Below, piece after piece: positions 3,168 through 64,000 of a stretch of DNA of 64,000 nt; positions within the stretch are counted from its first letter, which is position 1, and every line of letters starts with the position of its first letter. The translations under genes were made by a program, and so were the position numbers. Source of the stretch: a virus (Duplodnaviria; Caudoviricetes). Location of the stretch: positions 14,598 to 78,597 of IMG/VR virus record IMGVR_UViG_3300028888_000107, one strand, 5' to 3'. The notes under the pieces were generated by a model that ran no database searches, had not been told where the DNA came from, and saw only the letters and a list, made by a program, of their open reading frames with translations.

Positions 3168-3818
3168 TTATAATATTGGTTCATCTTTCATTTGAATATC
3201 GTTATAAAGATTTCGTAAGCAAACCCCAGTTTTTTCAACAATCCATTGTGATGTTGGAGAACCCTTATCATTACAAACTTTTTCCGTAATGCTTGTCAAA
3301 TAATATTCTTCATTATCATACAAAATAGTTCTATTTCCAGAAACAATACATTTTATTGTATTATCTTTTTTGTAAACCAAAACATCACCATCTTTTAAAC
3401 CCATTTCATAAAAGTTAAGGGGTCCTCTTTGCAATTTTTTTTCTTTAAATTGTGCAATTTTATCATTTGATGTTAAATTATTTTCAATTTCTTTATTAAT
3501 TTCATTTGTTACTTCTTCTATACTAAATAAACTTATAAGTCCTATAATGCTTTTTGGGTCCAATCTAAAAAATTCACGGTTATTGTTTACACGAACAACC
3601 CCAAATGCTTTATGAAGTTCCTTTTCAACTAAATCGCAATTGTTAACCGTGCAAGAATATTCACACACAAAAGGCACAGGAACTCCTGTTGAAAAAAGTT
3701 CTTTCATTCTATCATTAACATCGGTTCTTGTTGTTTTTCCTATTTTAACAAGACCCGGCATACAAGGGTTTGACAAAACATAAATAATTCCTTGCTTTTT
3801 GCTTAATGTGTTTTCCAT
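3168..3818 (-). CDS. T5orf172/MUG113 GIY-YIG-family nuclease with RAMA-like C-terminal domain
   Basis: GIIYVLSNPCMPGLVKIGKT...STGVPVPF...VEKELH...REFF; C-terminal LNFYEMGLKDGDVL. Confidence 0.85.
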   Translation of the reverse strand: MENTLSKKQGIIYVLSNPCMPGLVKIGKTTRTDVNDRMKELFSTGVPVPFVCEYSCTVNNCDLVEKELHKAFGVVRVNNNREFFRLDPKSIIGLISLFSIEEVTNEINKEIENNLTSNDKIAQFKEKKLQRGPLNFYEMGLKDGDVLVYKKDNTIKCIVSGNRTILYDNEEYYLTSITEKVCNDKGSPTSQWIVEKTGVCLRNLYNDIQMKDEPIL

Positions 3819-3920
3819 ATCTTTGTTGTTTTAATTACAGTGCAAAAATACAAAACTTTTTAATATATGCAACTAAAAAACAAAAAAGTTATTAACAAAG
3901 ATATCAACAATACACTACAA
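3816..3920 (-). promoter_or_regulatory. early promoter cassette P2
   Basis: TTG-N19-TATTTTTG(3843-50); boxes 3889-97 and 3901-09; near-identical to P1. Confidence 0.85.
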
Positions 3921-4937
3921 CTTTTTACGGTAAACATACACCTTTTCATTTGTATCCACAAAATGCGTGGTTCCTTGTTCATCCCCTTTTGAACCATAAA
4001 CACGTTTGCCGTTGCTTAATTCAACATCTTCCAAAAACACAAAGCCAACCTCTGTTGCCATTTTGTGAAAATCATCAGCCATCTTGTAGTTTTCGGTGTT
4101 TTTGATGTTGTATGCAAAGAAACCATCATTTACAAGGTATTGCTTGCAATTTTCCATAGTTTTCCTTACATAAACATTTAGCCAATCTTTGTATTGGGGA
4201 TACAACTTTATGCTTTGCTCACCGTGTTTGTAATCTTCCAAATCAAAATAGGGCGGGCTGCTAAAGCACAAACCCATTTTGTTTGTCCATTCTTCCACAA
4301 AAATTTCACTTCCTTGCGGTCTAATGTCCTTGTGTATTGGTGCAAACAACCTAAATGGATCCGAAGCATAATAATCTTCATACATATTGCCAAGTTGTTC
4401 AACCAATTCAACATTGGGATCGGTTCCATAATAGTTGGTTTTCATTCTCATACTGCCCAAAAGCCTTGCACCCCAACCGCAACTGTAATCATAATAGTTT
4501 TTGTTTGGGCAATAATTTTCCAACATATAGTTTATAACCTGTATGGGAAATTGGGTTGCCTTTCTTGCAACACCCTTGCCGCCCAGTTGAACCATGTGCA
4601 TAAATTTTTTGCAAGGAGTTGGGTCGTCAAAGATGTGTGGGAATGCTTCTGCTTTTGCCATAAAAAAGCCAACAAGTTCTTTTGATTCAAGTACCTCGTT
4701 TAACGAAAACTTATCACCGGCAAAACAAACATCCGATGCAATTTTTATAAAATACTTTTTGTATATCTCGCTTGTTACCGAACCACCGTTTGCCACTTTT
4801 CTAAATTGTGCATACAAGTCGCTTTTTGTAGGAACTTTATAGTATTCCTCAACTATTTCATTGTATTCCTCATCGGACAATTCCCTGTAAAACTTTGTTT
4901 TAAGGGTTTTACCGTTATGTGTTATTTCCTTAATCAT
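3915..4937 (-). CDS. DNA amino-methyltransferase (m4C/m6A)
   Basis: SAM-binding YDYSCGWGARLLG and catalytic SSPPYF motifs. Confidence 0.85.
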   Translation of the reverse strand: MIKEITHNGKTLKTKFYRELSDEEYNEIVEEYYKVPTKSDLYAQFRKVANGGSVTSEIYKKYFIKIASDVCFAGDKFSLNEVLESKELVGFFMAKAEAFPHIFDDPTPCKKFMHMVQLGGKGVARKATQFPIQVINYMLENYCPNKNYYDYSCGWGARLLGSMRMKTNYYGTDPNVELVEQLGNMYEDYYASDPFRLFAPIHKDIRPQGSEIFVEEWTNKMGLCFSSPPYFDLEDYKHGEQSIKLYPQYKDWLNVYVRKTMENCKQYLVNDGFFAYNIKNTENYKMADDFHKMATEVGFVFLEDVELSNGKRVYGSKGDEQGTTHFVDTNEKVYVYRKKL

Positions 4938-6014: not shown

Positions 6015-6020
6015 CTAAAT

Positions 6021-6082
6021 TAAAATGCAAAAATACAAATTATCCTAAAACACAAAAACATTAAAACAAAAAGTTATTAACA
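6021..6082 (-). promoter_or_regulatory. early promoter P3 (degenerate)
   Basis: TATTTTTG(6028-35); one box 6074-82. Confidence 0.65.
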
Positions 6083-10761: not shown

Positions 10762-11232
10762 TTAAAAGTTTAAGTTTCTTATTAAAATGTTTTGTTTGTT
10801 AAAGCCTTTGAATTGTTTTCTATCGGCATTCATTCTCCTAAACACGCTATCAACATCATTTCTTTTTAGCAACCTGAACAACCTTTCCCAAAAAGGTATT
10901 TTTAGGTAGATTACAACAAAGTTGTGTATGTTTTTGTCGTGCAACATATTTATATATTCGGGGGTTAGCACAAAAACATCCTTGTTTTTCCATTCGCCTT
11001 TCCTTAACCCGTACCACCAGTTGTTGTAGGAGTATGAAAAAAGGTAATCGCTTTTGTCAAAATTTTCCTCGCTTTTAAAGTAGTAATCAACACCATCCTT
11101 TTCACCCTTCCTTATGGGTCGTGTTGTATCAAGAACACCTGCAAGAAACCCCTTGTTGGCAAAAACGTTTTTAAGGTAATCCTTGCCGCTTGCCGCCGGT
11201 CCCGTTATTACTATTTTTGTTTTGTTAGCCAT
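10762..11232 (-). CDS. gmk: guanylate kinase
   Basis: P-loop ITGPAASGKD and TTRPIRKGEKDGVDYYF. Confidence 0.85.
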   Translation of the reverse strand: MANKTKIVITGPAASGKDYLKNVFANKGFLAGVLDTTRPIRKGEKDGVDYYFKSEENFDKSDYLFSYSYNNWWYGLRKGEWKNKDVFVLTPEYINMLHDKNIHNFVVIYLKIPFWERLFRLLKRNDVDSVFRRMNADRKQFKGFNKQNILIRNLNF

Positions 11233-18862: not shown

Positions 18863-19066
18863 TTAATACACCACATTAAGTTTTTTCTCTATACCTAATT
18901 CGTATTCGGTCTCCCTTTTGTCAAGAAATTCTTTTATTTCCTTTAAGTTCATTTCTTTAAAAAACGGGTAGGTTTCCAACATATCTTTGGTGCATTGAAG
19001 AAATTTTGAAATCATTGACAATGTTGCAAAATCTTCTCTAATATTGTAATATTCTTGTTTTGTCAT
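18863..19066 (-). CDS. hypothetical protein
   Basis: 67-aa ORF, ATGA-coupled to upstream gene. Confidence 0.6.
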   Translation of the reverse strand: MTKQEYYNIREDFATLSMISKFLQCTKDMLETYPFFKEMNLKEIKEFLDKRETEYELGIEKKLNVVY

Positions 19067-19320
19067 TGTTCTTTCATTGCTTTTTTAAAAAAATGAATAA
19101 GTTCACCCGTGTTGTAATCATGAAGCGAACACGTTGGTGGCATAAAATCTTCAACGTGTTTTTCCAACCATTCACACGCTTTGGCTATAATTTGTTCTTC
19201 TTTCCATTTGGACATTCGCATGGCTGAATTATACGCCATTTCGTAAAATGTTCTATTGGTGTTAAACCCAGATGAAAAGATACTATCAACTATTTTCTTT
19301 GCGTTTTGTTCATCCAACAT
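19063..19320 (-). CDS. hypothetical protein, related to the core of 27577-27804
   Basis: MLDEQNAKKIV...MSKWKEEQIIAKA vs MTDEQKAKELV...MAKWKEQQMLDKA. Confidence 0.65.
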   Translation of the reverse strand: MLDEQNAKKIVDSIFSSGFNTNRTFYEMAYNSAMRMSKWKEEQIIAKACEWLEKHVEDFMPPTCSLHDYNTGELIHFFKKAMKEQ

Positions 19321-19824: not shown

Positions 19825-20286
19825 TTAGTTATATCTTCTTTCGTACATCCCTTTAGGTGCTTCAAGAGCTAACCCTTTTTCTATCAAACCATTGTAATCA
19901 AGATGACTTTTGTTGTAAAATTGCACCATTTCGTACGTCCTTTTCGCAACTGCTTTTTGAAGAAGATGTCTTCTTTCATTATCGTCTTTTATTTGTTGGA
20001 CTTTTTTGACCAAAGTTTCTAAAAATTCACTCTCTATATCTGAAAAAACTTTTTGTTCATCCTCTGTCATACTTGACATCGGACGTAGATAGGGAATATA
20101 GTTATCCGAATAAGTGGAACCCATTTCATCCGTGAAATAGAAATTACCGTCTTCAAACATTCCAGACAATTTCATATCTTCTTCCACTAATCTACCATCC
20201 TTCTTATGTACAACACTACATATTACCCTATAAGGAAACATTGCGCATAAGAGTTTATTTAAAAGTTCTTTTTCTTCTTTATTCAT
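19825..20286 (-). CDS. phage family protein (EEKE.L.K.LC...PYLRPMSSMT...HLDYNGLI..GLALEAP.GMY)
   Basis: Paralog of 21993-22388 and of both ends of 24377-25051. Confidence 0.75.
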   Translation of the reverse strand: MNKEEKELLNKLLCAMFPYRVICSVVHKKDGRLVEEDMKLSGMFEDGNFYFTDEMGSTYSDNYIPYLRPMSSMTEDEQKVFSDIESEFLETLVKKVQQIKDDNERRHLLQKAVAKRTYEMVQFYNKSHLDYNGLIEKGLALEAPKGMYERRYN

Positions 20287-21627: not shown

Positions 21628-21930
21628 TTAATTTTTAAGGTTTTTGCTATTTTTTCTTTTTTGCAGCCAATCTATGATTTTAAACGATACCTTTGCAAGA
21701 ATAATGACCAATGCCACATACAACGCCACATTAAGCAGTATAAGGCAACCAAACAAAACAAGGTTTGGTTCAAGTTTCAAAATTTTGTATTGCAAAAACA
21801 CAAACAAAGCGGTTGCGATACAAAACGAAACAACAACACCCAAGCATCCACGCATTTCATCTTTGTTGTGCGGGTTTAAGTCAGGTATGTCATCGGGGTT
21901 ATAGGAAGCCCAAGGAAACACAGGTATCAT
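21628..21930 (-). CDS. membrane protein
   Basis: Two hydrophobic helices and a basic C-tail. Confidence 0.65.
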   Translation of the reverse strand: MIPVFPWASYNPDDIPDLNPHNKDEMRGCLGVVVSFCIATALFVFLQYKILKLEPNLVLFGCLILLNVALYVALVIILAKVSFKIIDWLQKRKNSKNLKN

Positions 21931-21992: not shown

Positions 21993-22388
21993 TTAGTACA
22001 TTCCCTCAGGTGCTTCCAATGCCAACCCCATTGCAATTAAGCCGTTGTAATCAAGGTGGTGTTCGTTGCAATAGTGAATGAACTCAGCCATTTGTCCCCA
22101 AGCGGCAGGCGACCAACCATCGCCATAGTTTTCGTTTTCAATAATGTTTAGGCATTGTTGAAAATTATCCCTTTCTTCTTGTGTCATACTTGACATTGGA
22201 CGCAAGTATGGTTTAAACTGTTCACCAACGTGGCAGGTCAATCCCCCGTTTGTAACAATAAACGGGTATTCGGAAAGGCAGATTGTTTTGATTGTGTCGA
22301 TTTTCTTTCCGAGAGCCAATCCCTTGACACCGTACTGTGCTGTTTCGCACAGCGATTTCAGTAATATTTCTTTTTCTTCTTTTGACAT
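21993..22388 (-). CDS. phage family protein (paralog of 19825-20286)
   Basis: MSKEEKEILLKSLC...KPYLRPMSSMT...HLDYNGLIAMGLALEAPEGMY. Confidence 0.75.
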   Translation of the reverse strand: MSKEEKEILLKSLCETAQYGVKGLALGKKIDTIKTICLSEYPFIVTNGGLTCHVGEQFKPYLRPMSSMTQEERDNFQQCLNIIENENYGDGWSPAAWGQMAEFIHYCNEHHLDYNGLIAMGLALEAPEGMY

Positions 22389-24376: not shown

Positions 24377-25051
24377 TTATTTGTACATATCTTTAGTGGT
24401 TTCCAAGACAAGTCCTTTTTTAATCAATCCATGATAGTTTAAATGGTCACTGCTATCAAAGGCGGACCTTGTGGATTATGTTGCGGTTAAAATTAAACAA
24501 TTCCTCCTTGTTGCAATTGCCCTTAAATCTTCGGCAATTTGCTTTATGTTCATATAGGTGTTTTCCGAGTTGGGGTTGCGGTAGTTACGCATAATGTTAA
24601 TATAGTCAATAACCACAACGTGTATCTTAAACCCTTCCGTATCTTCAATTTGCTTAATGTGATTTTCCAAATCAATGGTGGTGCAACAACTTGTGGGGTA
24701 TTCCTTTATAAAAAGCCTGCCCAACGGGATAAGTTGCTTCCTTCTAAATTCTTGAAGCCTTTTACCCATCCTTTCATCATCATTGGATATACTATCATAA
24801 TCCTTCATATCAATATCCAAAACATTTGCACCTATTCTTTTTATAACCTTTTTGTCACTCATCTCGCAAGTTACAAAAAGAACATTTTTACCGGCTTTCA
24901 TAAAGTTGGCGGCATCGTTGCACAAAAATATTGAGTTAGATAGAATTCGATCAATCGCTGCGAAATCTTGGCAAAACGAATCACCGGTTGGTGTGTGCGG
25001 CACCCTCATGCAAAGGTTTTTTAACAGCCATTCTTTATCTTCTTGTTTCAT
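24377..25051 (-). pseudogene. chimeric gene: phage-family N-terminus + linker + gp41 helicase core fragment + phage-family C-terminus, with internal TAA at 24476-24478
   Basis: MKQEDKEWLLKNLC...SIFLCNDAANF...VVIDYI...ILTAT*STRSAFDSSD-HLNYHGLIKKGLVLETTKDMYK*, one reading frame throughout. Confidence 0.8.
24447..24577. repeat. near-exact dispersed copy of helicase gene segment 63870-64000
   Basis: 129/131 nt identical (differences 24478/63901 and 24566/63989); may extend to about 24936 beyond the window edge. Confidence 0.95.
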
Positions 25052-25059
25052 ACCACTTG

Positions 25060-25142
25060 TTTTTAATTACACCGCAAAAATACAAAACTTTTTAATATAT
25101 GCAACTTTTGCTACAAAAAAGTTATTAACATTGTTATTAACA
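25060..25142 (-). promoter_or_regulatory. early promoter cassette P4
   Basis: TTG-N19-TATTTTTG(25075-82); boxes 25122-30 and 25134-42. Confidence 0.85.
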
Positions 25143-25155
25143 TAACCAAAATTGG

Positions 25156-26505
25156 TTACAATTCAAAAAGGTTACGCAATTTCTCCTCAGGCATATCATA
25201 CAAATCCTTTGGGTTAAATTCAGTGTCGTTAAAGCCACCGGTGTCTGTACACAACTTTCCATCGCACCACTTTTCGGCATATTCAACCATTCTGTCAATT
25301 TGTCGCTTTGTTAACGGCTTATCACGCAGTGCATAGCCACAAGCAACAAGTTCATAGCCCAAAAAGCGTATTTTGCCAAAATGGAAGCGAACCCATCCAG
25401 CCTTATCAATGGCATAGTCCTTGTTGTAATCCTTATCATAGGCAGGGAGGTATTCGCCAACACCATGCTTTTCGTACAAGGCGTCAGCCAATTCAACGTG
25501 TATAAGGGGTGATTCATTCATTCCCATTGCATATACATTGCCATAAGGGTCAATGTATCCCGCCTCCCAATGGTCATCAAAGGTAACGGGTTCCGCAAGG
25601 TCTCTTTTCTTTTGGGTTTCTTTTTTCTTGGCAATTTCCTTGTTGATTTTGTTGGTGTTTGCTTCCATTGCGGTTTCGCCTCTAACCATATCTTCCACCA
25701 CAACATCCGCAACTTTGTTATAACCGTTTTTGTAAAACAACTCGTTTAGTTTATCCAAGTTTTCAACATCGTACAAAAGCAAAAGGTCGTAAAGTTTTTT
25801 AAAGTCCTCGTACTCTTTTTTATAATCGTTGTATTCGTATGATGGTACACTGTCAGGTCCAAACTTAAAGCCAAAGTTTTTTTGAAACCATTCAACCATT
25901 GGGATAAACTTTTCCGAATCTTCAACAAAGGTTTTAAGGCAATCCAAATCCATAAACCTATCATAAATTCTCCTGTTAAACAACGGTTGCGTATCACCGT
26001 GTTCCAAAATGTTTAACGCTTCCCTATCGTTTTCTTTCCAAACCCTTATAATATCCCCTGCTGTTATCTTAATGCTTCCGCTTATCTTTCCAACAGGGAC
26101 GCTAACACCAAAAAGTTCAAGCAAATCTTTATCATCCAAATCAACAGTGTAAACACATTCTTTGGCAAAGGTGTCCATTATTTTTTTTCTTAAAGCATCA
26201 CGGTATTTGTAATCGTTGTTAAAAAGATAATGCTTAACATAGCCAACATAATCGCTTTCGTTGTACATTGAAAGTTCCTCTTGGCTTAACACTTCCTTTT
26301 TGCAAATGCCCATTCTTGTATCGCTTTCTGTTTTAAGAAAAAGTTCGTTTTTAAGAATCGGCAAAACGTATTGTTTTGGAACACCGGAATCCGTCAAGGT
26401 TTTAACAGCCCATTCTGGATTTTTGTCATAATAAAGGTGTTCGTTTGCTATGTTTTGCAAAACAATTCCAAGATTTTCCCCAAGTGTAAAATGCAAGGTT
26501 TCCAT
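25156..26505 (-). CDS. hypothetical protein
   Basis: 449-aa ORF. Confidence 0.75.
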   Translation of the reverse strand: METLHFTLGENLGIVLQNIANEHLYYDKNPEWAVKTLTDSGVPKQYVLPILKNELFLKTESDTRMGICKKEVLSQEELSMYNESDYVGYVKHYLFNNDYKYRDALRKKIMDTFAKECVYTVDLDDKDLLELFGVSVPVGKISGSIKITAGDIIRVWKENDREALNILEHGDTQPLFNRRIYDRFMDLDCLKTFVEDSEKFIPMVEWFQKNFGFKFGPDSVPSYEYNDYKKEYEDFKKLYDLLLLYDVENLDKLNELFYKNGYNKVADVVVEDMVRGETAMEANTNKINKEIAKKKETQKKRDLAEPVTFDDHWEAGYIDPYGNVYAMGMNESPLIHVELADALYEKHGVGEYLPAYDKDYNKDYAIDKAGWVRFHFGKIRFLGYELVACGYALRDKPLTKRQIDRMVEYAEKWCDGKLCTDTGGFNDTEFNPKDLYDMPEEKLRNLFEL

Positions 26506-26518
26506 AACTTTGTTGTTT

Positions 26519-26725
26519 TTAGTCTTTGCTATCTTCGGAAATTAAACAAGGTGCTCCATAATAAACAGCGTTAGGCACTTCTTCAAAATCGGAAACATTG
26601 TAACTGTACTTAAGGCAATCATCCTCACGAACCATAACCCCAAATGCTTCCTCCGGGCTGTTTGCGGCAACAACACACAAACCCCTCCCGCAACTTCTTT
26701 TGGCAATATAAATCTTTGTTTGCAT
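26519..26725 (-). CDS. hypothetical protein
   Basis: Start set at MQTKIY behind a promoter cassette. Confidence 0.6.
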   Translation of the reverse strand: MQTKIYIAKRSCGRGLCVVAANSPEEAFGVMVREDDCLKYSYNVSDFEEVPNAVYYGAPCLISEDSKD

Positions 26726-26818
26726 ATCTTTATTGTTTTTAATTACACCGCAAAAATACAAAAATATTTTATATATGCAACTTTTTATGAAAAAAAGTTA
26801 TTAACAAAGTTATTAACA
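26726..26818 (-). promoter_or_regulatory. early promoter cassette P5
   Basis: TTG-N19-TATTTTTG(26751-58); boxes 26798-806 and 26810-18. Confidence 0.85.
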
Positions 26819-26823
26819 AATTT

Positions 26824-27192
26824 TTATTCGGGATAATAAAGTGTTGTTTTGGGGTAGCCAAACTCTTCAATCTCATCTGCTTGTTTGGAGAGTTTGTATG
26901 CCATAATTTTAAGTCTTTCCGCGGAGTCTCTTAAATGAACAACAAACTTTCTTTTGCCTTCTTCGGTATCAATAAACGGTCCAGATCCTTGGCATCCACA
27001 ACTCCACACACTGTTTTTTCTTGGGTGGTAAACATCGGGGTTTACTTGAATAAATTTGTTTCCATCTTCATCCAAACCATCCTCACTGCCAAACAATTGA
27101 ACTATAATGTTCATTTCACCGTTTGGATGTTTTAGGTTGTCGGGGTTTACCCCAATTTCAATTAGTTGTTCTGTTGTTAAAACATCTTCCAT
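26824..27192 (-). CDS. hypothetical protein
   Basis: 122-aa ORF. Confidence 0.65.
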   Translation of the reverse strand: MEDVLTTEQLIEIGVNPDNLKHPNGEMNIIVQLFGSEDGLDEDGNKFIQVNPDVYHPRKNSVWSCGCQGSGPFIDTEEGKRKFVVHLRDSAERLKIMAYKLSKQADEIEEFGYPKTTLYYPE

Positions 27193-27272
27193 AACTTTAA
27201 TGCTTTAATTACATTGTTGGAAAAAACTCATTTCTTTCCGCATATTCAATGGTTTCTGACAATTTTTTATCT
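27190..27272. repeat. 83-bp direct repeat copy A (encodes orphan DKKLSETIEYAERNEFFPTM* plus next leader)
   Basis: 74/83 identical to 27558-27640 without gaps. Confidence 0.9.
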
Positions 27273-27281
27273 ATTATTTTC

Positions 27282-27560
27282 TTACCAAGAAATTCTCAAT
27301 AAATCCCTATCGTTTTCAAAGACGATTTTTGTTTTATATCCTTTATCATAAAGGGTGTTTTCTATCGCAACCAAAGAGCATTTCAAATGTTCATCATTTT
27401 CATCGAAGAACCAATCACATGAATTAAATCCGCCTTTGGATGATTTGTCTATAAGTTTATATATATCATCAAGATAAATTGACGCCAAATAACTCAAACT
27501 CCCCTGTTCGGTTTGTTTTCGCGCATCATTTGCCGTTATATTCATTTTGCAGTTTTTCAT
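27282..27560 (-). CDS. hypothetical protein in cassette 2
   Basis: Begins MKNCKMN like 27577-27804. Confidence 0.65.
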   Translation of the reverse strand: MKNCKMNITANDARKQTEQGSLSYLASIYLDDIYKLIDKSSKGGFNSCDWFFDENDEHLKCSLVAIENTLYDKGYKTKIVFENDRDLLRISW

Positions 27561-27581
27561 AACTTTATGTTTTTAATTACA
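27538..27581. repeat. 44-bp leader/MKNCKMN repeat, second copy at 27782-27825
   Basis: 43/44 identical. Confidence 0.9.
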
Positions 27582-27640
27582 TTGTTGGAAAAAACCCATT
27601 TTTTTCTGCATATTCAATGGTTTCCGACAATTTTTTGTCT
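27558..27640. repeat. 83-bp direct repeat copy B
   Basis: Encodes DKKLSETIEYAEKNGFFPTM* plus leader of next gene. Confidence 0.9.
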
Positions 27641-27804
27641 TTTGCTTTATCCAACATTTGTTGTTCTTTCCATTTAGCCATATCAATTAAGGCATCATAT
27701 ACATCCTGAGCAAGGTCTTTGTTATGGTGGTTTATGTCGCACCACTTTTGAACCAATTCCTTTGCCTTTTGTTCATCCGTCATATTCATTTTGCAATTTT
27801 TCAT
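27577..27804 (-). CDS. hypothetical protein in cassette 1
   Basis: MKNCKMN + MTDEQKAKEL core + DKKLSETIEYAEKNGFFPTM. Confidence 0.65.
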   Translation of the reverse strand: MKNCKMNMTDEQKAKELVQKWCDINHHNKDLAQDVYDALIDMAKWKEQQMLDKAKDKKLSETIEYAEKNGFFPTM

Positions 27805-27896
27805 AACTTTATGTTTTTAATTACACCGCAAAAATACAAAACTTTTTAATATATGCAACCACTTAAACAAAAAAGTTATTAACAAACTTATCAACA
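27805..27896 (-). promoter_or_regulatory. early promoter cassette P6
   Basis: TTG-N19-TATTTTTG(27829-36); boxes 27876-84 and TTATCAACA 27888-96. Confidence 0.85.
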
Positions 27897-28562
27897 TTTA
27901 ACACATCTAACACCCATTGCCAAAGCTCTTGCACCAAAAGCACCGACAACATTTGCCCCTTTGTGCCAAATCCTAATAAACCAAGTATATTCATCGCTAT
28001 CTTGGTATTCATCGGAACACCATAGATGTGAAGTGATGCCAAGTGGATTCTTTGTGTTTATGGAATAACCGTTTGGGTATATGTTTAAGTTTGTTTCGTT
28101 GTTTGTTTCTGCATTCCTACCAACGCTGTTTTCTACATCGCTTTTTAGCCAATCATTGTTTGAACAAATTGCCTTTGCGGTGTGTGCCAAATAAGGACGC
28201 ATTTCTTCTTTGTTTAGGTTATGTTCACCTTTGCCCAAAAAAGTTAAAAGTTCTGTCCAATCGTTAATGGCGGTAACACGCCAACCCTTTGGGGCAAGCA
28301 ATTCCGTGTCAACCGCCTCAAAATTGTAATGCAAACCGTAATTGGGCAACCTGCTTGACTTTGGCGTTAAGTTACCGGGGTATTCATAATAGGGTAGTTT
28401 GCCAAGTTCGGATGTGGCGTATGTGTTAAGGGGTGTGCCATCGTTTAACCGTGTAACCCTCAAATTGGAAGCCAACCATAACTTGTTGTTGATGTTAACG
28501 GCATCATAGATATTGCCATCAATATCGGTTACTGCGTTTCTTATCAATTCAAAATTTTTCAT
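27891..28562 (-). CDS. FISUMP (Fibrobacter succinogenes major paralogous, CLec-like) domain protein
   Basis: TDIDGNIY..V.I....WLASNLR, YGLHYNF, LAPKGWRV....DW, LWCS, GVRCVK. Confidence 0.85.
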   Translation of the reverse strand: MKNFELIRNAVTDIDGNIYDAVNINNKLWLASNLRVTRLNDGTPLNTYATSELGKLPYYEYPGNLTPKSSRLPNYGLHYNFEAVDTELLAPKGWRVTAINDWTELLTFLGKGEHNLNKEEMRPYLAHTAKAICSNNDWLKSDVENSVGRNAETNNETNLNIYPNGYSINTKNPLGITSHLWCSDEYQDSDEYTWFIRIWHKGANVVGAFGARALAMGVRCVKC

Positions 28563-28574
28563 AGTAACAAAATC

Positions 28575-28637
28575 AATGTGGCAAAAATACAAAATATTTT
28601 ATATAGGCAACCACAAACAACAAAAAAGTTATTAACA
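28575..28637 (-). promoter_or_regulatory. early promoter cassette P7
   Basis: TTG-N18-TATTTTTG(28582-89); box 28629-37. Confidence 0.8.
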
Positions 28638-28805
28638 CATTAAGGTTTGAACGGAACCGGTTTAACAGATTAACAGAATAACAAATTTATTTCTCTTATA
28701 TAATACACTTTGCCAAATGTTGATAATTAGGTTGTTGTAAATTTAGGGTATATATGTGGCATATATCCAAACCACCAAATATAAATACTAAAAACAAAAA
28801 ACTTT

Positions 28806-41400: not shown

Positions 41401-41430
41401 AACTTTTAATTTATTTTTATATTTATAATT

Positions 41431-43128
41431 TTAAAAATCGATTCTATATTTAATTTTACCGGCATCCCAACATTTGACATAACCACGGTTTCTCATAACT
41501 TCATCTTCTGTTAATTCAGGATGTTCAACACATTCAACCAAATTTGATTTTTGAAAACGGTATCTTGGCAAACGAATATCCATTGTTGTCCAATAGTAAG
41601 TTGGTGGAACAATGTGTTCCTTTTCAAACCCCATCTTTTCATAAACATCACCGTTTGAAACAGATAAATCTGCAAATGTTATAATTGTTTTTGGATTATA
41701 TAACTTTACAAAGTGTTTTAGCAACTTGCTTGCACCGCCCCTTACGTGGGTATCAAAAGGTGAACACATACGACTTAACTCCCATTCGCCCTCCTTTGGT
41801 TTTCCACCGATTAAACGCCTTTTCTTTGCAAACAAGCAAACCATTACAAGTTGGTTATCTTTGTAAAGACCAAGTTTAACTTGCGAAGGTGTGTAGCCTT
41901 GGATGTGGTATGTTTCACAAAACGCTTTGGCTGTTTTTGTATCAATTTCTCTAACAACACAATCTCTTGCGTTTATTTTGTTGGTATGCAATCCAAATTT
42001 ACCACGAATTATATTTTTAACAATATCTTTTTTGTATTTCCAATCATCTTCCCATATATGCAACAATTGTGTGCTTTTGTACGTGCATAATAATGTTTTA
42101 TCGTAATGGTAATTTTTATCTTTGTATATGTCGCTATGCCAATACACACCGTTAAACTCAAATGCAAGATTTTTTTCCGGTAAGTATATGTCAAGTTCCT
42201 TACCGTTTAAAAGTTTTCTATCGTTTTCTATTATTTTGCCATTGTATATATCTTGGATATATAGTAATAATTCTTGTTCACACCCACTGCTTAAAGCACC
42301 AATAGGGTTTAATTTTGTGCAAGTTTCATAACCGTATCTTTTTCTATCGTTGTATAGTTGTTGTTTTGTTATGTAAGTTTTTTCTATACATTTGTCGCAA
42401 TTTGGATTTGTGCATTTGCAAATCCAATCACCCGTTTCAGTAAAGCCAACAACAAAATCTTTATTGCCAAGTAATCGGGTTCTTCTGTTTTTCCTTGTTT
42501 TTTCTTTAACTTCCTTTATTGAATACGGGTTGTCCACACCATACTTTGTTAAAAAGGTGTTTTTTCTTTTTTCTTTAATTTCATTGCTTGAACTTGGGTT
42601 TTCTGTACCGTACTTTTTTAAACAGGTTTCTTTTGACAAATTTCTTACTGATTGAAGGCATAACGTGCATTTGACACCGTACTTTTTTAAGTTGATAACA
42701 TCTCTTGATTTGTTTGCCCTTTCTACAACTTGTTTGTTTTGCGATGGGTTTTTAACACCATAATGTTTTATGTATGCTTCTTCCCTCTTTCTTTGCATTT
42801 CATTGGCTTTTTCTTCACCGTATTTTTCCTTGTTTGATTTTCTTTTCTCATTTAAAATGTTTTCATCTTTTTGGCAACAAGAATATGAACAATGTTTTCT
42901 GTATCCTGTGTTATAACCCGTGAATTTTGTTCTTTTTCCGCATATAACACATTTTCCAAGAAAAAAGTTTTTATCGTTATGAATGTAATGATACAACATT
43001 TGCATAAATGAAAATTCTTCAGGAAAATTCCACAATTGCAAATCTTTGTAAATTTCAGGGTATTTTTTGGAAAATGACTTCTTGTTTAACCCTTGTATGT
43101 TTTCGTATGTTAATTCATCTTTTGTCAT
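41431..43128 (-). mobile_element. free-standing Hef-like homing endonuclease
   Basis: CVICGKRTKF...GYRKHCS; ELDIYLPEKNLAFEFNGVYWHS; 3' part nearly identical to 43131-44120. Confidence 0.75.
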
Positions 43129-43130
43129 AT

Positions 43131-45365
43131 TTAAAAATCGATTCTGTATTTAATTTTACCGGCATCCCAACATTTGACATATCCACGGTTTCGCATAACT
43201 TCATCTTCTGTTAGTTCGGGATGTTCAACACATTCAACCAAATTTGATTTTTGAAAACGGTATCTTGGATATCTAACACCGTTAATTGCCCAATAGTATG
43301 TTGGCGGTACAACATATTCCTTTTTAAATCCCATCTTTTCGTAAACACCACCGTTTGAAACAGAAAGGTCTGCAAAAGTAACAATTGTTTTTGGATTGTA
43401 TAGCCTTGCAAAGTGTTTCAACAACTTGCTTGCGCCTCCCCTTACATGGGTGTCAAAGGGTGAACACATTCTATAAAGTTCCCACTCCCCATCCTTTTTA
43501 CCGGCACCGCTAATTCTTCTAACCGGACCAAACAAGCAAACCATTACAAGTTGGTTGTCTTTGTAAAGCCCAAGTTTAACTTGTGAAGATGTGTAGCCTT
43601 GGATATGGTAGGTATCACAAAACTTTTTTGCCGTTTTTGAATCTATTTCTTTAACAACACAATTTCTTGCGTTTAATTTGTTGGTATGCAAACCAAGTTT
43701 TCCTCGTATCAGGTTTTTAAGTATGTCTTTCTTGTTTAGCCAATCATCTTCCCAAATGTGAATTAGTTGTACGCCCTTGTTTAAACAAGATATTGATTTG
43801 TTGTAATGGTAATCTTTTTCTTTATATATGTCGCTGTGCCAATACACACCGTTAAATTCAAAGGCAAGTTTTTTTTCCGGTAGATAAATATCAAGTTCCT
43901 TGCCGTTCAAAAGTTTTCTATCGTTTTCAATTATTTTACCGTTGTATATATCTTGAATATATAGCAACAATTCTTGTTCCCTTCCACTGTTTAAAACACC
44001 TATCGGGTTTAACTTGGTGCAAGTTTCATAACCACCAATTATTCTATCCTTGTTTATGTTTGCATTTGTTATATATGTTTTTTCTATACATTTGTCGCAA
44101 TTTGGATTTGTGCATTTGCAAATCCATTGTCCGTTTTCTGTGTATCCCAACAAAAAATTATGTTTTTCTACTGTGTTTTTTCTAACTTTTTTTAAATTGG
44201 CTTCTTTTGCCGTATTTGTTTCCAAAAAACTGTTTACACCATATTTTTCTTGGTTTGTTTTTATTACCCTTTTCTTTACTTCATCATTTTGGGATGGATG
44301 TTCAACACCATACTTTTTTATAGAAGTTTTCTTTGTTTTGCTTTTAAAATCTTCTGTTTGTGTATAGTATTCTTTTCCATATTTGGTTAAGTTGGTTTGT
44401 TTTGTTTTTTCTTTTATTTCATGTGAACACACAGGCGAATTTCCGCCATACCTTTCTTGGTTAGTTTCTTTTATTTTATCCCTTACTTCTTTTGCCCTTA
44501 ATGAATTTGAAACACCGTAGTTTTTTAAAAAAGTTTCTTCCCTTTTTTGCTTTACTTCTTCTGCTTGTGAAACATTATCAACACCATACCTTTCTTGATT
44601 TGTTTTTCTTATTTTTTCTTTTATTTCTTCATTTTTTAAAGGAGATGTTTCACCATATTTTAACATACAAGTTCTTTTTATTTTTTCTTGAACTTTTTTT
44701 GATTGTGCAGGATTGTTAACACCGTAGTTTTTTAAAAAGGTTTCTTCCCTTTTTTGCTTTATTTTTTCTGCCTGTGAAACATTAACCACACCATACCTTT
44801 CTTGGTTGGTTTTTCTTATTTTTTCTTTTATCTCCGTGTTTTTAAGTGGTGTCGTCTCACCGTATCTTTCCAAACAAGTTTCTGTTCGTTTTTTCAAAAC
44901 ACTTTTGTTTTGTATTGCGTGTTTTACACCGTATTTTTTAAGGGTGGTTTGCTCTTGCTTTCTTTTTATTTCTTCCTTTTCTTTTTCTGTTTTGTTTTTA
45001 TAATTCTCTTGTTTTTTTATTTTTATTGCTTCTTTTTCTTCGTTTGTTCTTTTGTTTATGGTATCTTTCATTCTTTTTGAAACAACACCGCTTTTGTTTA
45101 TGCAATCCCTTGAACAATATTCATGATAGCCTTCATATATGTTAACAAAATTGCAACGCTTTCCACAAAATGGACAAACACCAAGTAAAAGGTCGACATC
45201 TTCATTTATATAGTGATACAGTTTTTGCTTAAATGAAAAACCCTCTGGATAGTTGGTAGAAGATATTTCACCATATTCTTGAGGAAATGTTTTTGCAAAC
45301 CCCTTTTCGGTTGTAAAATATCCGCTTTTAGATTCTTTGCATTTTGCTATTATGTAATCTTTCAT
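43131..45365 (-). mobile_element. free-standing Hef-like homing endonuclease with expanded repeat region
   Basis: CPFCGKRCNF...GYHEYCS; ten or more KYG/RYG repeats; same nuclease motif; start set at MKDYII. Confidence 0.75.
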
Positions 45366-63442: not shown

Positions 63443-64000
63443 TTAAAAAGGCATATCCCCTTGTGTGGGTTCGCCCGCTTTTTTCTCTTTTTTAAGTTCC
63501 CTTATGTCCCTTACTTTGATTTTACCGCCACCAAAGTTTTCATCTGTATCGTTTTCCCATTTATCCTTGTTGGGTTCTATTTTTTTCATAGGTTCAACCT
63601 TCTTTGTTTTTATTTTGGTGGTTGGTTTGCTATCGGGAACAGATGAACTTCCATCTTCATTTATAATTATACCGTTTTCATTTAAACGCATTTTTCGGTA
63701 TTCAATGTCCAACCCCATTTTGCTGTTTTTGCCAAAGCCATCCCTTATTTTTAGCATCTTTAAGAAGTACTCGTTGTTCATTTTTTGTTCATCATCTTGT
63801 ATGATGCCGTAAACAGTATCCGATGTTGCAACAAGACCCATACTTTCGGCAACTTGCGACAATGTTATATCACTGCTATCAAAGGCGGACCTTGTGGATT
63901 GTGTTGCGGTTAAAATTAAACAATTCCTCCTTGTTGCAATTGCCCTTAAATCTTCGGCAATTTGCTTTATGTTCATATAGGTGTTTTCAGAGTTGGGGTT
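63443..64000 (-). CDS. gp41: replicative helicase (T4 gp41/DnaB-like), 3' part
   Basis: IKQIAEDLRAIA...ILTATQSTRSAF...VAESMGLVATSD...LKIRDG; runs off window end. Confidence 0.9.
   Translation of the reverse strand, partial: NPNSENTYMNIKQIAEDLRAIATRRNCLILTATQSTRSAFDSSDITLSQVAESMGLVATSDTVYGIIQDDEQKMNNEYFLKMLKIRDGFGKNSKMGLDIEYRKMRLNENGIIINEDGSSSVPDSKPTTKIKTKKVEPMKKIEPNKDKWENDTDENFGGGKIKVRDIRELKKEKKAGEPTQGDMPF

Follow-up and report, generated by a model that had tools for sequence, protein, structure and literature searches.

The small early genes that follow promoter P6 in the phage DNA analysed here probably go back to a tandem copy of one gene, A, bracketed by a 24-nt leader, in which one unit of an unrelated gene, B, took the place of the second copy's body. 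The arrangement can be regarded as what two ordinary recombination events have left behind among the accessory early genes (the hyperplastic region) of a T4-like jumbo phage. Our verdict is ordinary phage gene shuffling rather than the integron-like capture system that an earlier note on this DNA had put forward.

The window, i.e., the whole stretch of 64,000 nt that was analysed (GC content ~35%), belongs to a 78.6-kb contig, the virus fragment IMGVR_UViG_3300028888_000107, with a CheckV completeness of 33%. Its genes include those for a major capsid protein (Pfam Gp23, E 2.5e-33) and a portal (Gp20, Portal_T4, E 1.3e-63), both of the T4 type, and the relatives that were reached via genes B and C are contigs of 322–393 kb. 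Because of these two proteins, the size of the relatives and the Bacteroidota form of the promoters, the contig is best regarded as a fragment of a T4-like jumbo phage that would infect a member of the Bacteroidota. Searches against GenBank phages by megablast, blastn, and tblastn gave no match, and the region carries dozens of small open reading frames without known families.

Layout of the locus and its repeated ends

On the minus strand, the locus runs from P6 via L, gene A (which ends in R), a second copy of L, gene B, R' and leader' to gene C, and every element of this anatomy, which the earlier note had described, was recovered at its place. The P6 cassette (27825–27897) has two TGTTAATAAC-type boxes followed by the promoter core at 27858–27829. 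L copy 1 (27777–27825) contains the 24-nt leader, the seven-codon prefix MKNCKMN, and ATGACGG, the native start of the gene A family. Gene A (27577–27804) encodes 75 aa, namely, the prefix, a core homologous to that encoded at 19063–19320, and the R tail; R itself (27577–27639) comprises the last 20 codons of A and its stop codon, and the beginning of the next leader overlaps this stop. In L copy 2 (27533–27581), the native start position reads ATA. Gene B (27282–27560; 92 aa, with its own stop) joins the seven-codon prefix of A in frame to a complete 85-aa PHROG 5321 gene and is followed by a 13-nt spacer (27269–27281) that is B's own and was brought in with B. Next come the orphan R' (27209–27271), an untranslated 3' relic of a second copy of gene A, then leader' (27193–27213), a diverged copy of the cassette leader, and directly behind it gene C (26824–27192; 122 aa), a small and widely conserved gene that anchors the locus. 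In a regex scan, P6 was the sole promoter core of its type within 26824–27897; since no second core follows P6 up to the end of C, genes A, B, and C most simply form one transcription unit.

The gene directly upstream of P6 (27891–28592) contains a Fibrobacter succinogenes major paralogous domain (PF09603, E 6e-26), an unusual cargo for a phage early region, and for a 449-aa neighbour gene no related loci were found among viral contigs. Elsewhere in the window, two adjacent DUF7487 genes (565 and 772 aa) have 1030 nt in common at 82.6% identity (41430–42457 and 43130–44155), which points to a tandem duplication beside structural genes.

The two copies of L (27825–27777 and 27581–27533) are identical at 47 of 49 positions, and at 43 of 44 over the shorter span for which the earlier note had counted them. 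R together with its leader (27648–27555) matches its second copy (27280–27187) at 86–88% over 89–94 nt; the earlier note had counted 74 of 83. A 28-nt part of L (leader and first codons) and a 29-nt R pattern each occur exactly twice in the window, compared with an expectation of zero from shuffled sequences, and self-BLAST of the whole 78.6-kb contig confined both repeat pairs to this locus. Further L/R flanks, which the earlier note had proposed to look for, were found neither in the contig nor, as exact patterns, in IMG/VR, where the scan may leave out records near this genome.

Of the 63 nt, five differ between R and R', and three of these changes would be synonymous. R' keeps an open frame of 20 codons and a stop, in a frame that differs from that of B and without a plausible start codon. 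Readthrough or frameshifting from B into R' was ruled out because R' lies in another frame; this frame is open for just four codons upstream of B's stop, and no slippery site was seen on reading the sequence. The idea that R is a decayed, translated promoter cassette was discarded as well, as local alignment against five cassettes stayed at chance level. R does begin with the small inverted repeat to which the earlier note had drawn attention, but this was rejected as a special feature, since the 64-kb window contains 135 perfect stems of 5 nt with a 4-nt loop.

The nature of L and R becomes apparent from the relatives of gene A. A search of 5.8 billion proteins returned four clusters of gene A homologues; in three of them, a like prefix is united with the core and the R tail of A in a single protein of 75–81 aa at 77–96% identity (P0001–P0003, P0017, P0019, and P0034). 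Because these relatives encode A whole, from prefix to R tail, L and R are the proper beginning (5') and end (3') of gene A and not portable flanks. The observation that different genes lie between the same sequences behind a promoter therefore stands, for two unrelated genes, but the fixed flanks of the earlier note turn into the ends of a gene. For annotation, the prefix and the orphan R' are to be treated as relics, not as motifs.

Gene A has a composite look of its own. Its core (residues 8–54) is 35% identical to residues 1–48 of the product of 19063–19320 (E 3e-8), which bears out a resemblance seen earlier; this free-standing paralogue (minus strand, 85 aa) lacks the prefix and has a different C-terminus of its own. 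Distantly related genes on other jumbo-phage contigs match the core of A only. In P0004, the core carries a different tail, the end of which resembles the C-terminus of a multicopy family described below (8 of 11 residues), and in P0023, the core and R are followed by another 70 residues. Gene A itself is probably an older chimera of a free-standing-type core and the R tail. In A, too, the seven codons of the prefix stand ahead of the native start, and A may therefore have arrived behind an older 5' end that was already resident. No related loci of the A family were found among metagenome contigs.

Gene B and the junctions of its unit

Past the prefix, A and B have no similarity. Residues 8–92 of B match positions 2–92 of the 92-position PHROG 5321 profile, and the homologues of B form 12 clusters, most of them with proteins of 85 aa that begin with MT. 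In L010, L014, L016, L017, and L019, B is found in at least four other upstream contexts, without L and never with R downstream; among GTDB genome contigs, no loci related to the B family were found. The AlphaFold model of B has a mean pLDDT of 82, with values below 50 for residues 1–7, i.e., the borrowed prefix, which are disordered in the model. Small uncharacterised proteins from T4-like phages of Aeromonas, Acinetobacter, and enterobacteria resemble it in structure (E ~1e-4), and a fold search against the PDB gave nothing significant (best match E 0.07). B is a typical small accessory protein of T4-like phages.

In the loci of several relatives, B lies inside arrays of a multicopy family of ~130–150-aa proteins. 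Members of this family have an N-terminus like M..EEK.LL.K.L, a C-terminus like GLALEAP, and a weak match to PHROG 10841. The arrays contain up to ~9 tandem paralogues in 12 kb, with B within them; the family occupies 1900–9900 in L014, 3400–7400 in L016, and 1200–7700 in L019, and in the window it is present at 19825–20286 and 21993–22388. A 100-aa protein of L014, a 322-kb contig, is 95.7% identical to its counterpart in the window (10882–11157 and 21628–21930, respectively). Between the window and L014, B is 86% identical and most of its neighbours have no match, which indicates strong mosaicism between these phages.

The two junctions of B can be located to within a few bases. At the 5' junction, gene A reads ATGACGG followed by A, B of the relatives reads ATGACAG followed by B, and B of the window reads ATAACGG followed by B, so that the latter carries ACGG as in A rather than ACAG as in B of the relatives. 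As judged from these sequences, the 5' join lies inside the 7-nt ATGACNG in which the start codons of A and B overlap, and B's own ATG was changed to ATA later; P0005 and P0035 still have M at the position of B's own start. Because the native start position reads ATA in L copy 2, B must start at the ATG of the prefix. A role of the ATGAC start as a general recombination linker was ruled out, since only 9 of 85 rough gene calls begin in this way. On the 3' side, homology to L014, L015, L016, and L019 spans the stop codon of B and the spacer up to window position 27268 and then ends, exactly at the ATG position of the next gene in these relatives. R' follows this junction, and the overlap there is limited to AGA (3 nt). 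Both junctions lie outside the cassette, at different short microhomologies and without one common site. One complete B unit, from its start codon to the next start codon, would have replaced the body of an A copy.

The A-B pair is not restricted to this contig. In one MAG, the NCBI protein accessions of A and prefixed B are next to each other, as are their locus tags; the A and prefixed-B clusters hold 29 and 46 sequences, respectively (from ENA, Logan, NCBI, and JGI), on contigs of up to 408 kb, with several contigs of the same size in both cluster lists. From these protein clusters, the pair appears to have been inherited across a clade rather than turning over. With no additional L/R copies and no variation in content seen, i.e., with the same A-B pair apparent, the cassette-array reading would fail by the test that the earlier note had itself set. 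The outcome also differs from the simple duplication and divergence that this test had named; as far as the sequences tell, the history is one of duplication and body replacement. The arrangement seems to predate the divergence from lineages with an A protein of 77% identity. R is nevertheless closer to R' than to R of this 77%-identity lineage, which counts against the proposed history unless gene conversion, later module exchange between strains, or constraint on R' is assumed.

Promoter cassettes and the proposed history

The promoter core of this phage has the Bacteroidota-type form TTG-N19-TAnnTTTG, for which the regex scan gave 22 matches in the window compared with 4.3 expected. A cassette of ~100 nt occurs in eight copies, all on the minus strand, with one or two TGTTAATAAC boxes, a TTG-N19-TATTTTTG core, and a conserved A-rich leader (2057–2174, 3811–3926, 6018–6082, 25046–25143, 26719–26819, 27797–27897 at P6, 28581–28637, and 34087–34176). 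These copies have 82–92% identity, and five of the eight have a 24-nt leader segment in common. The 24-nt leader lies on both sides of A, in the 3' part of the cassette and in the spacer before gene C. The same 24 nt also follow the end of R, with the stop codon of A inside the leader. No terminator-like hairpin was found at any cassette within 26400–28700.

Other joins are seen behind these promoters. A 191-aa gene behind P4 has the N-terminus of the multicopy family followed by a piece of a DnaB-type helicase. The 3' end of this chimera (24447–24577) recurs with 98.5% identity over 131 nt at 63870–64000, in a helicase gene that runs off the contig; this match is cut by the contig end, and it may be longer and may be the reason why the assembly stops. 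In the complete 393-kb relative G001 (locus L009), the order behind a promoter cassette is a gene of 51 aa, a dead relic of gene C, an inserted membrane-type gene of 83 aa, and an intact gene C. In the relic (L009 5689–5731), ~25 nt from the start of C and 20 nt from its end meet out of frame at an ATTG that both have. Gene C has more than 148 homologue clusters, and the genes upstream of it differ between lineages (L009, L021, and L022). These data support the view that small early genes are often shuffled in this phage group. The promoter-proximal gene capture or shuffling of the earlier note, to which the helicase chimera behind P4 belonged, is therefore upheld solely in the generic sense already described for T4-type phages, as shuffling and not as dedicated capture.

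The history that we consider probable would start from a resident state in which A was a small early gene directly behind P6, with the 24-nt leader on both sides. It would then involve I) unequal homologous recombination between two leader copies, by which the 244-nt A unit was duplicated in tandem; and II) the replacement of the second A body by the B unit, from its start codon to the last base before the next start codon. A 244-nt unit between direct repeats is a classic substrate for unequal homologous recombination. The junctions of step II can be read directly from the DNA; the order of the two steps is one that we infer. An equivalent route would be a swap in another strain first, giving A::B, followed by a leader-to-leader crossover with a strain that carried A. 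Either way, the outcome would be one operon, P6-A-B-C, in which B is translated from the leader, start codon, and first seven codons of A, a start that B uses because its own ATG became ATA. The 3' end of the overwritten A copy would stay behind as the untranslated R' and still supply the leader of gene C. General phage recombination and replication, with selection for insertions that keep expression signals intact, would suffice for this course of events, and no dedicated capture machinery would be needed; a RecA/UvsX-type recombinase is encoded in the complete 393-kb relative.

Known systems and alternative explanations

The closest known system is the modular shuffling of the hyperplastic region in T4-type phages, with its promoter-early stem-loop (PeSL) cassettes (Arbiol et al. 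2010, PMC2839356; Comeau et al. 2014, PMC4122927). As in that system, the phage is T4-like (Gp23 capsid, Gp20 portal), the genes concerned are small, early, and non-essential, and insertions and replacements set relatives apart. A strong promoter unit of the host type likewise recurs many times, and a single-gene unit has a short regulatory repeat on either side, which can explain its tandem duplication. Unlike PeSLs, the promoter is of the Bacteroidota type, the cassette lacks the terminator stem-loop of the PeSL composite of promoter and terminator, and A is bracketed by the 24-nt leader of the cassette alone and not by the whole cassette. PeSL breakpoints fall in the cassette; here, the ends of the duplicated A unit coincide with the leader, and the B junctions (ATGACNG and AGA) lie outside.

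An active hot spot of the PeSL kind, with the leader or cassette as a portable homology patch for general recombination and L/R as one snapshot of it, is an unlikely alternative, although it is the one that survives best. We likewise doubt that such a hot spot has been duplicating promoter-proximal gene units, excising them as mini-circles, and re-inserting them repeatedly. The eight similar cassette copies, the leader on both sides of the A unit, and the lineage-dependent content between promoter and gene C would all agree with it, and both shuffling and mini-circles have been documented in T4-type phages (PMC2839356, PMC4122927). However, both B junctions are found outside the leader at unrelated microhomologies, the closest relatives apparently carry the same A-B pair without a sign of turnover at the site, and the cassette has no terminator stem-loop. 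A tentative variant, to which we give no more weight, is that the 24-nt leader, with or without the short prefix, is a portable patch for PeSL-like recombination in T4-like jumbo phages of the Bacteroidota, by which single-gene units next to a promoter are duplicated, excised, and re-inserted time and again and newcomers fuse in frame to the resident 5' end, as for A'::B and the helicase chimera behind P4. If true, PeSL shuffling would have a variant that lacks the terminator and would extend to a new host phylum.

Duplication followed by body replacement, the reading that we prefer, is also close to the general model of tailed-phage evolution, i.e., mosaicism by illegitimate recombination at gene boundaries and gene acquisition of the 'moron' type. 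As in that model, a complete foreign gene unit was joined at very short homologies, the surviving joins preserve expression, and relics of the overwritten gene stay in place. Unlike a moron, B brings no promoter or terminator; it borrows the leader, start codon, and first seven codons of the resident, and it lies inside a duplicate of the resident gene.

Integron-like, site-specific capture, in which L and R would be attachment sites and a dedicated recombinase would insert promoterless genes beside P6, is very improbable. What recalls integron cassettes (IntI, attI, attC, Pc) is a series of promoterless genes behind one promoter with repeats between the units, and the same end sequences on two unrelated genes. 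The repeats, however, are the coding ends of the resident gene, with L and R as the two ends of one conserved gene; B occurs elsewhere without these flanks; no further L/R copies were found in the contig or, as exact patterns, in IMG/VR; and the two joins of B are different microhomologies. As to a recombinase elsewhere in the genome, which the earlier note had suggested looking for, tyrosine recombinases (PF00589) were absent from the contig (G000, 33% complete) and from the complete 393-kb G001, in a search that scored 14 of 14 control genomes, and serine recombinases (PF00239) were absent from the same two. No attC-like fold was found in R+L or in R' with its leader on either strand, as the repeats fold no better than shuffled sequences (z -1.1, -1.7, 0.0, and -0.45) and form only local stems of 5–7 bp. 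Varied cassette content, as in integrons, was not seen, and the protein clusters of the closest relatives suggest the same A-B pair.

An assembly artefact, in which two strain variants of a metagenome would have been fused into a chimera, might be suspected in a metagenomic fragment that is 33% complete and has another repeat reaching the contig end, but it is hardly credible in view of A and prefixed B occurring together in many independent assemblies from several sources, with adjacent NCBI locus tags and accessions. Equally remote is simple tandem duplication with divergence, which would make A and B paralogues and agrees with adjacent units that have both ends in common; judged on sequence, it is already refuted by the lack of similarity past the prefix, the sharp boundaries between shared and unshared parts, and the place of B in a family of its own, with a full-length PHROG match and homologues in other contexts.

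The locus reveals no new mechanism and no new mobile element. It represents a base-resolved case in which a giant phage would have gained an early gene by overwriting a spare copy of a resident gene, with the newcomer inheriting the promoter, leader, and start codon of the resident. In this way, the plasticity known from the hyperplastic regions of T4-type phages would be extended to uncultured jumbo phages of the Bacteroidota.
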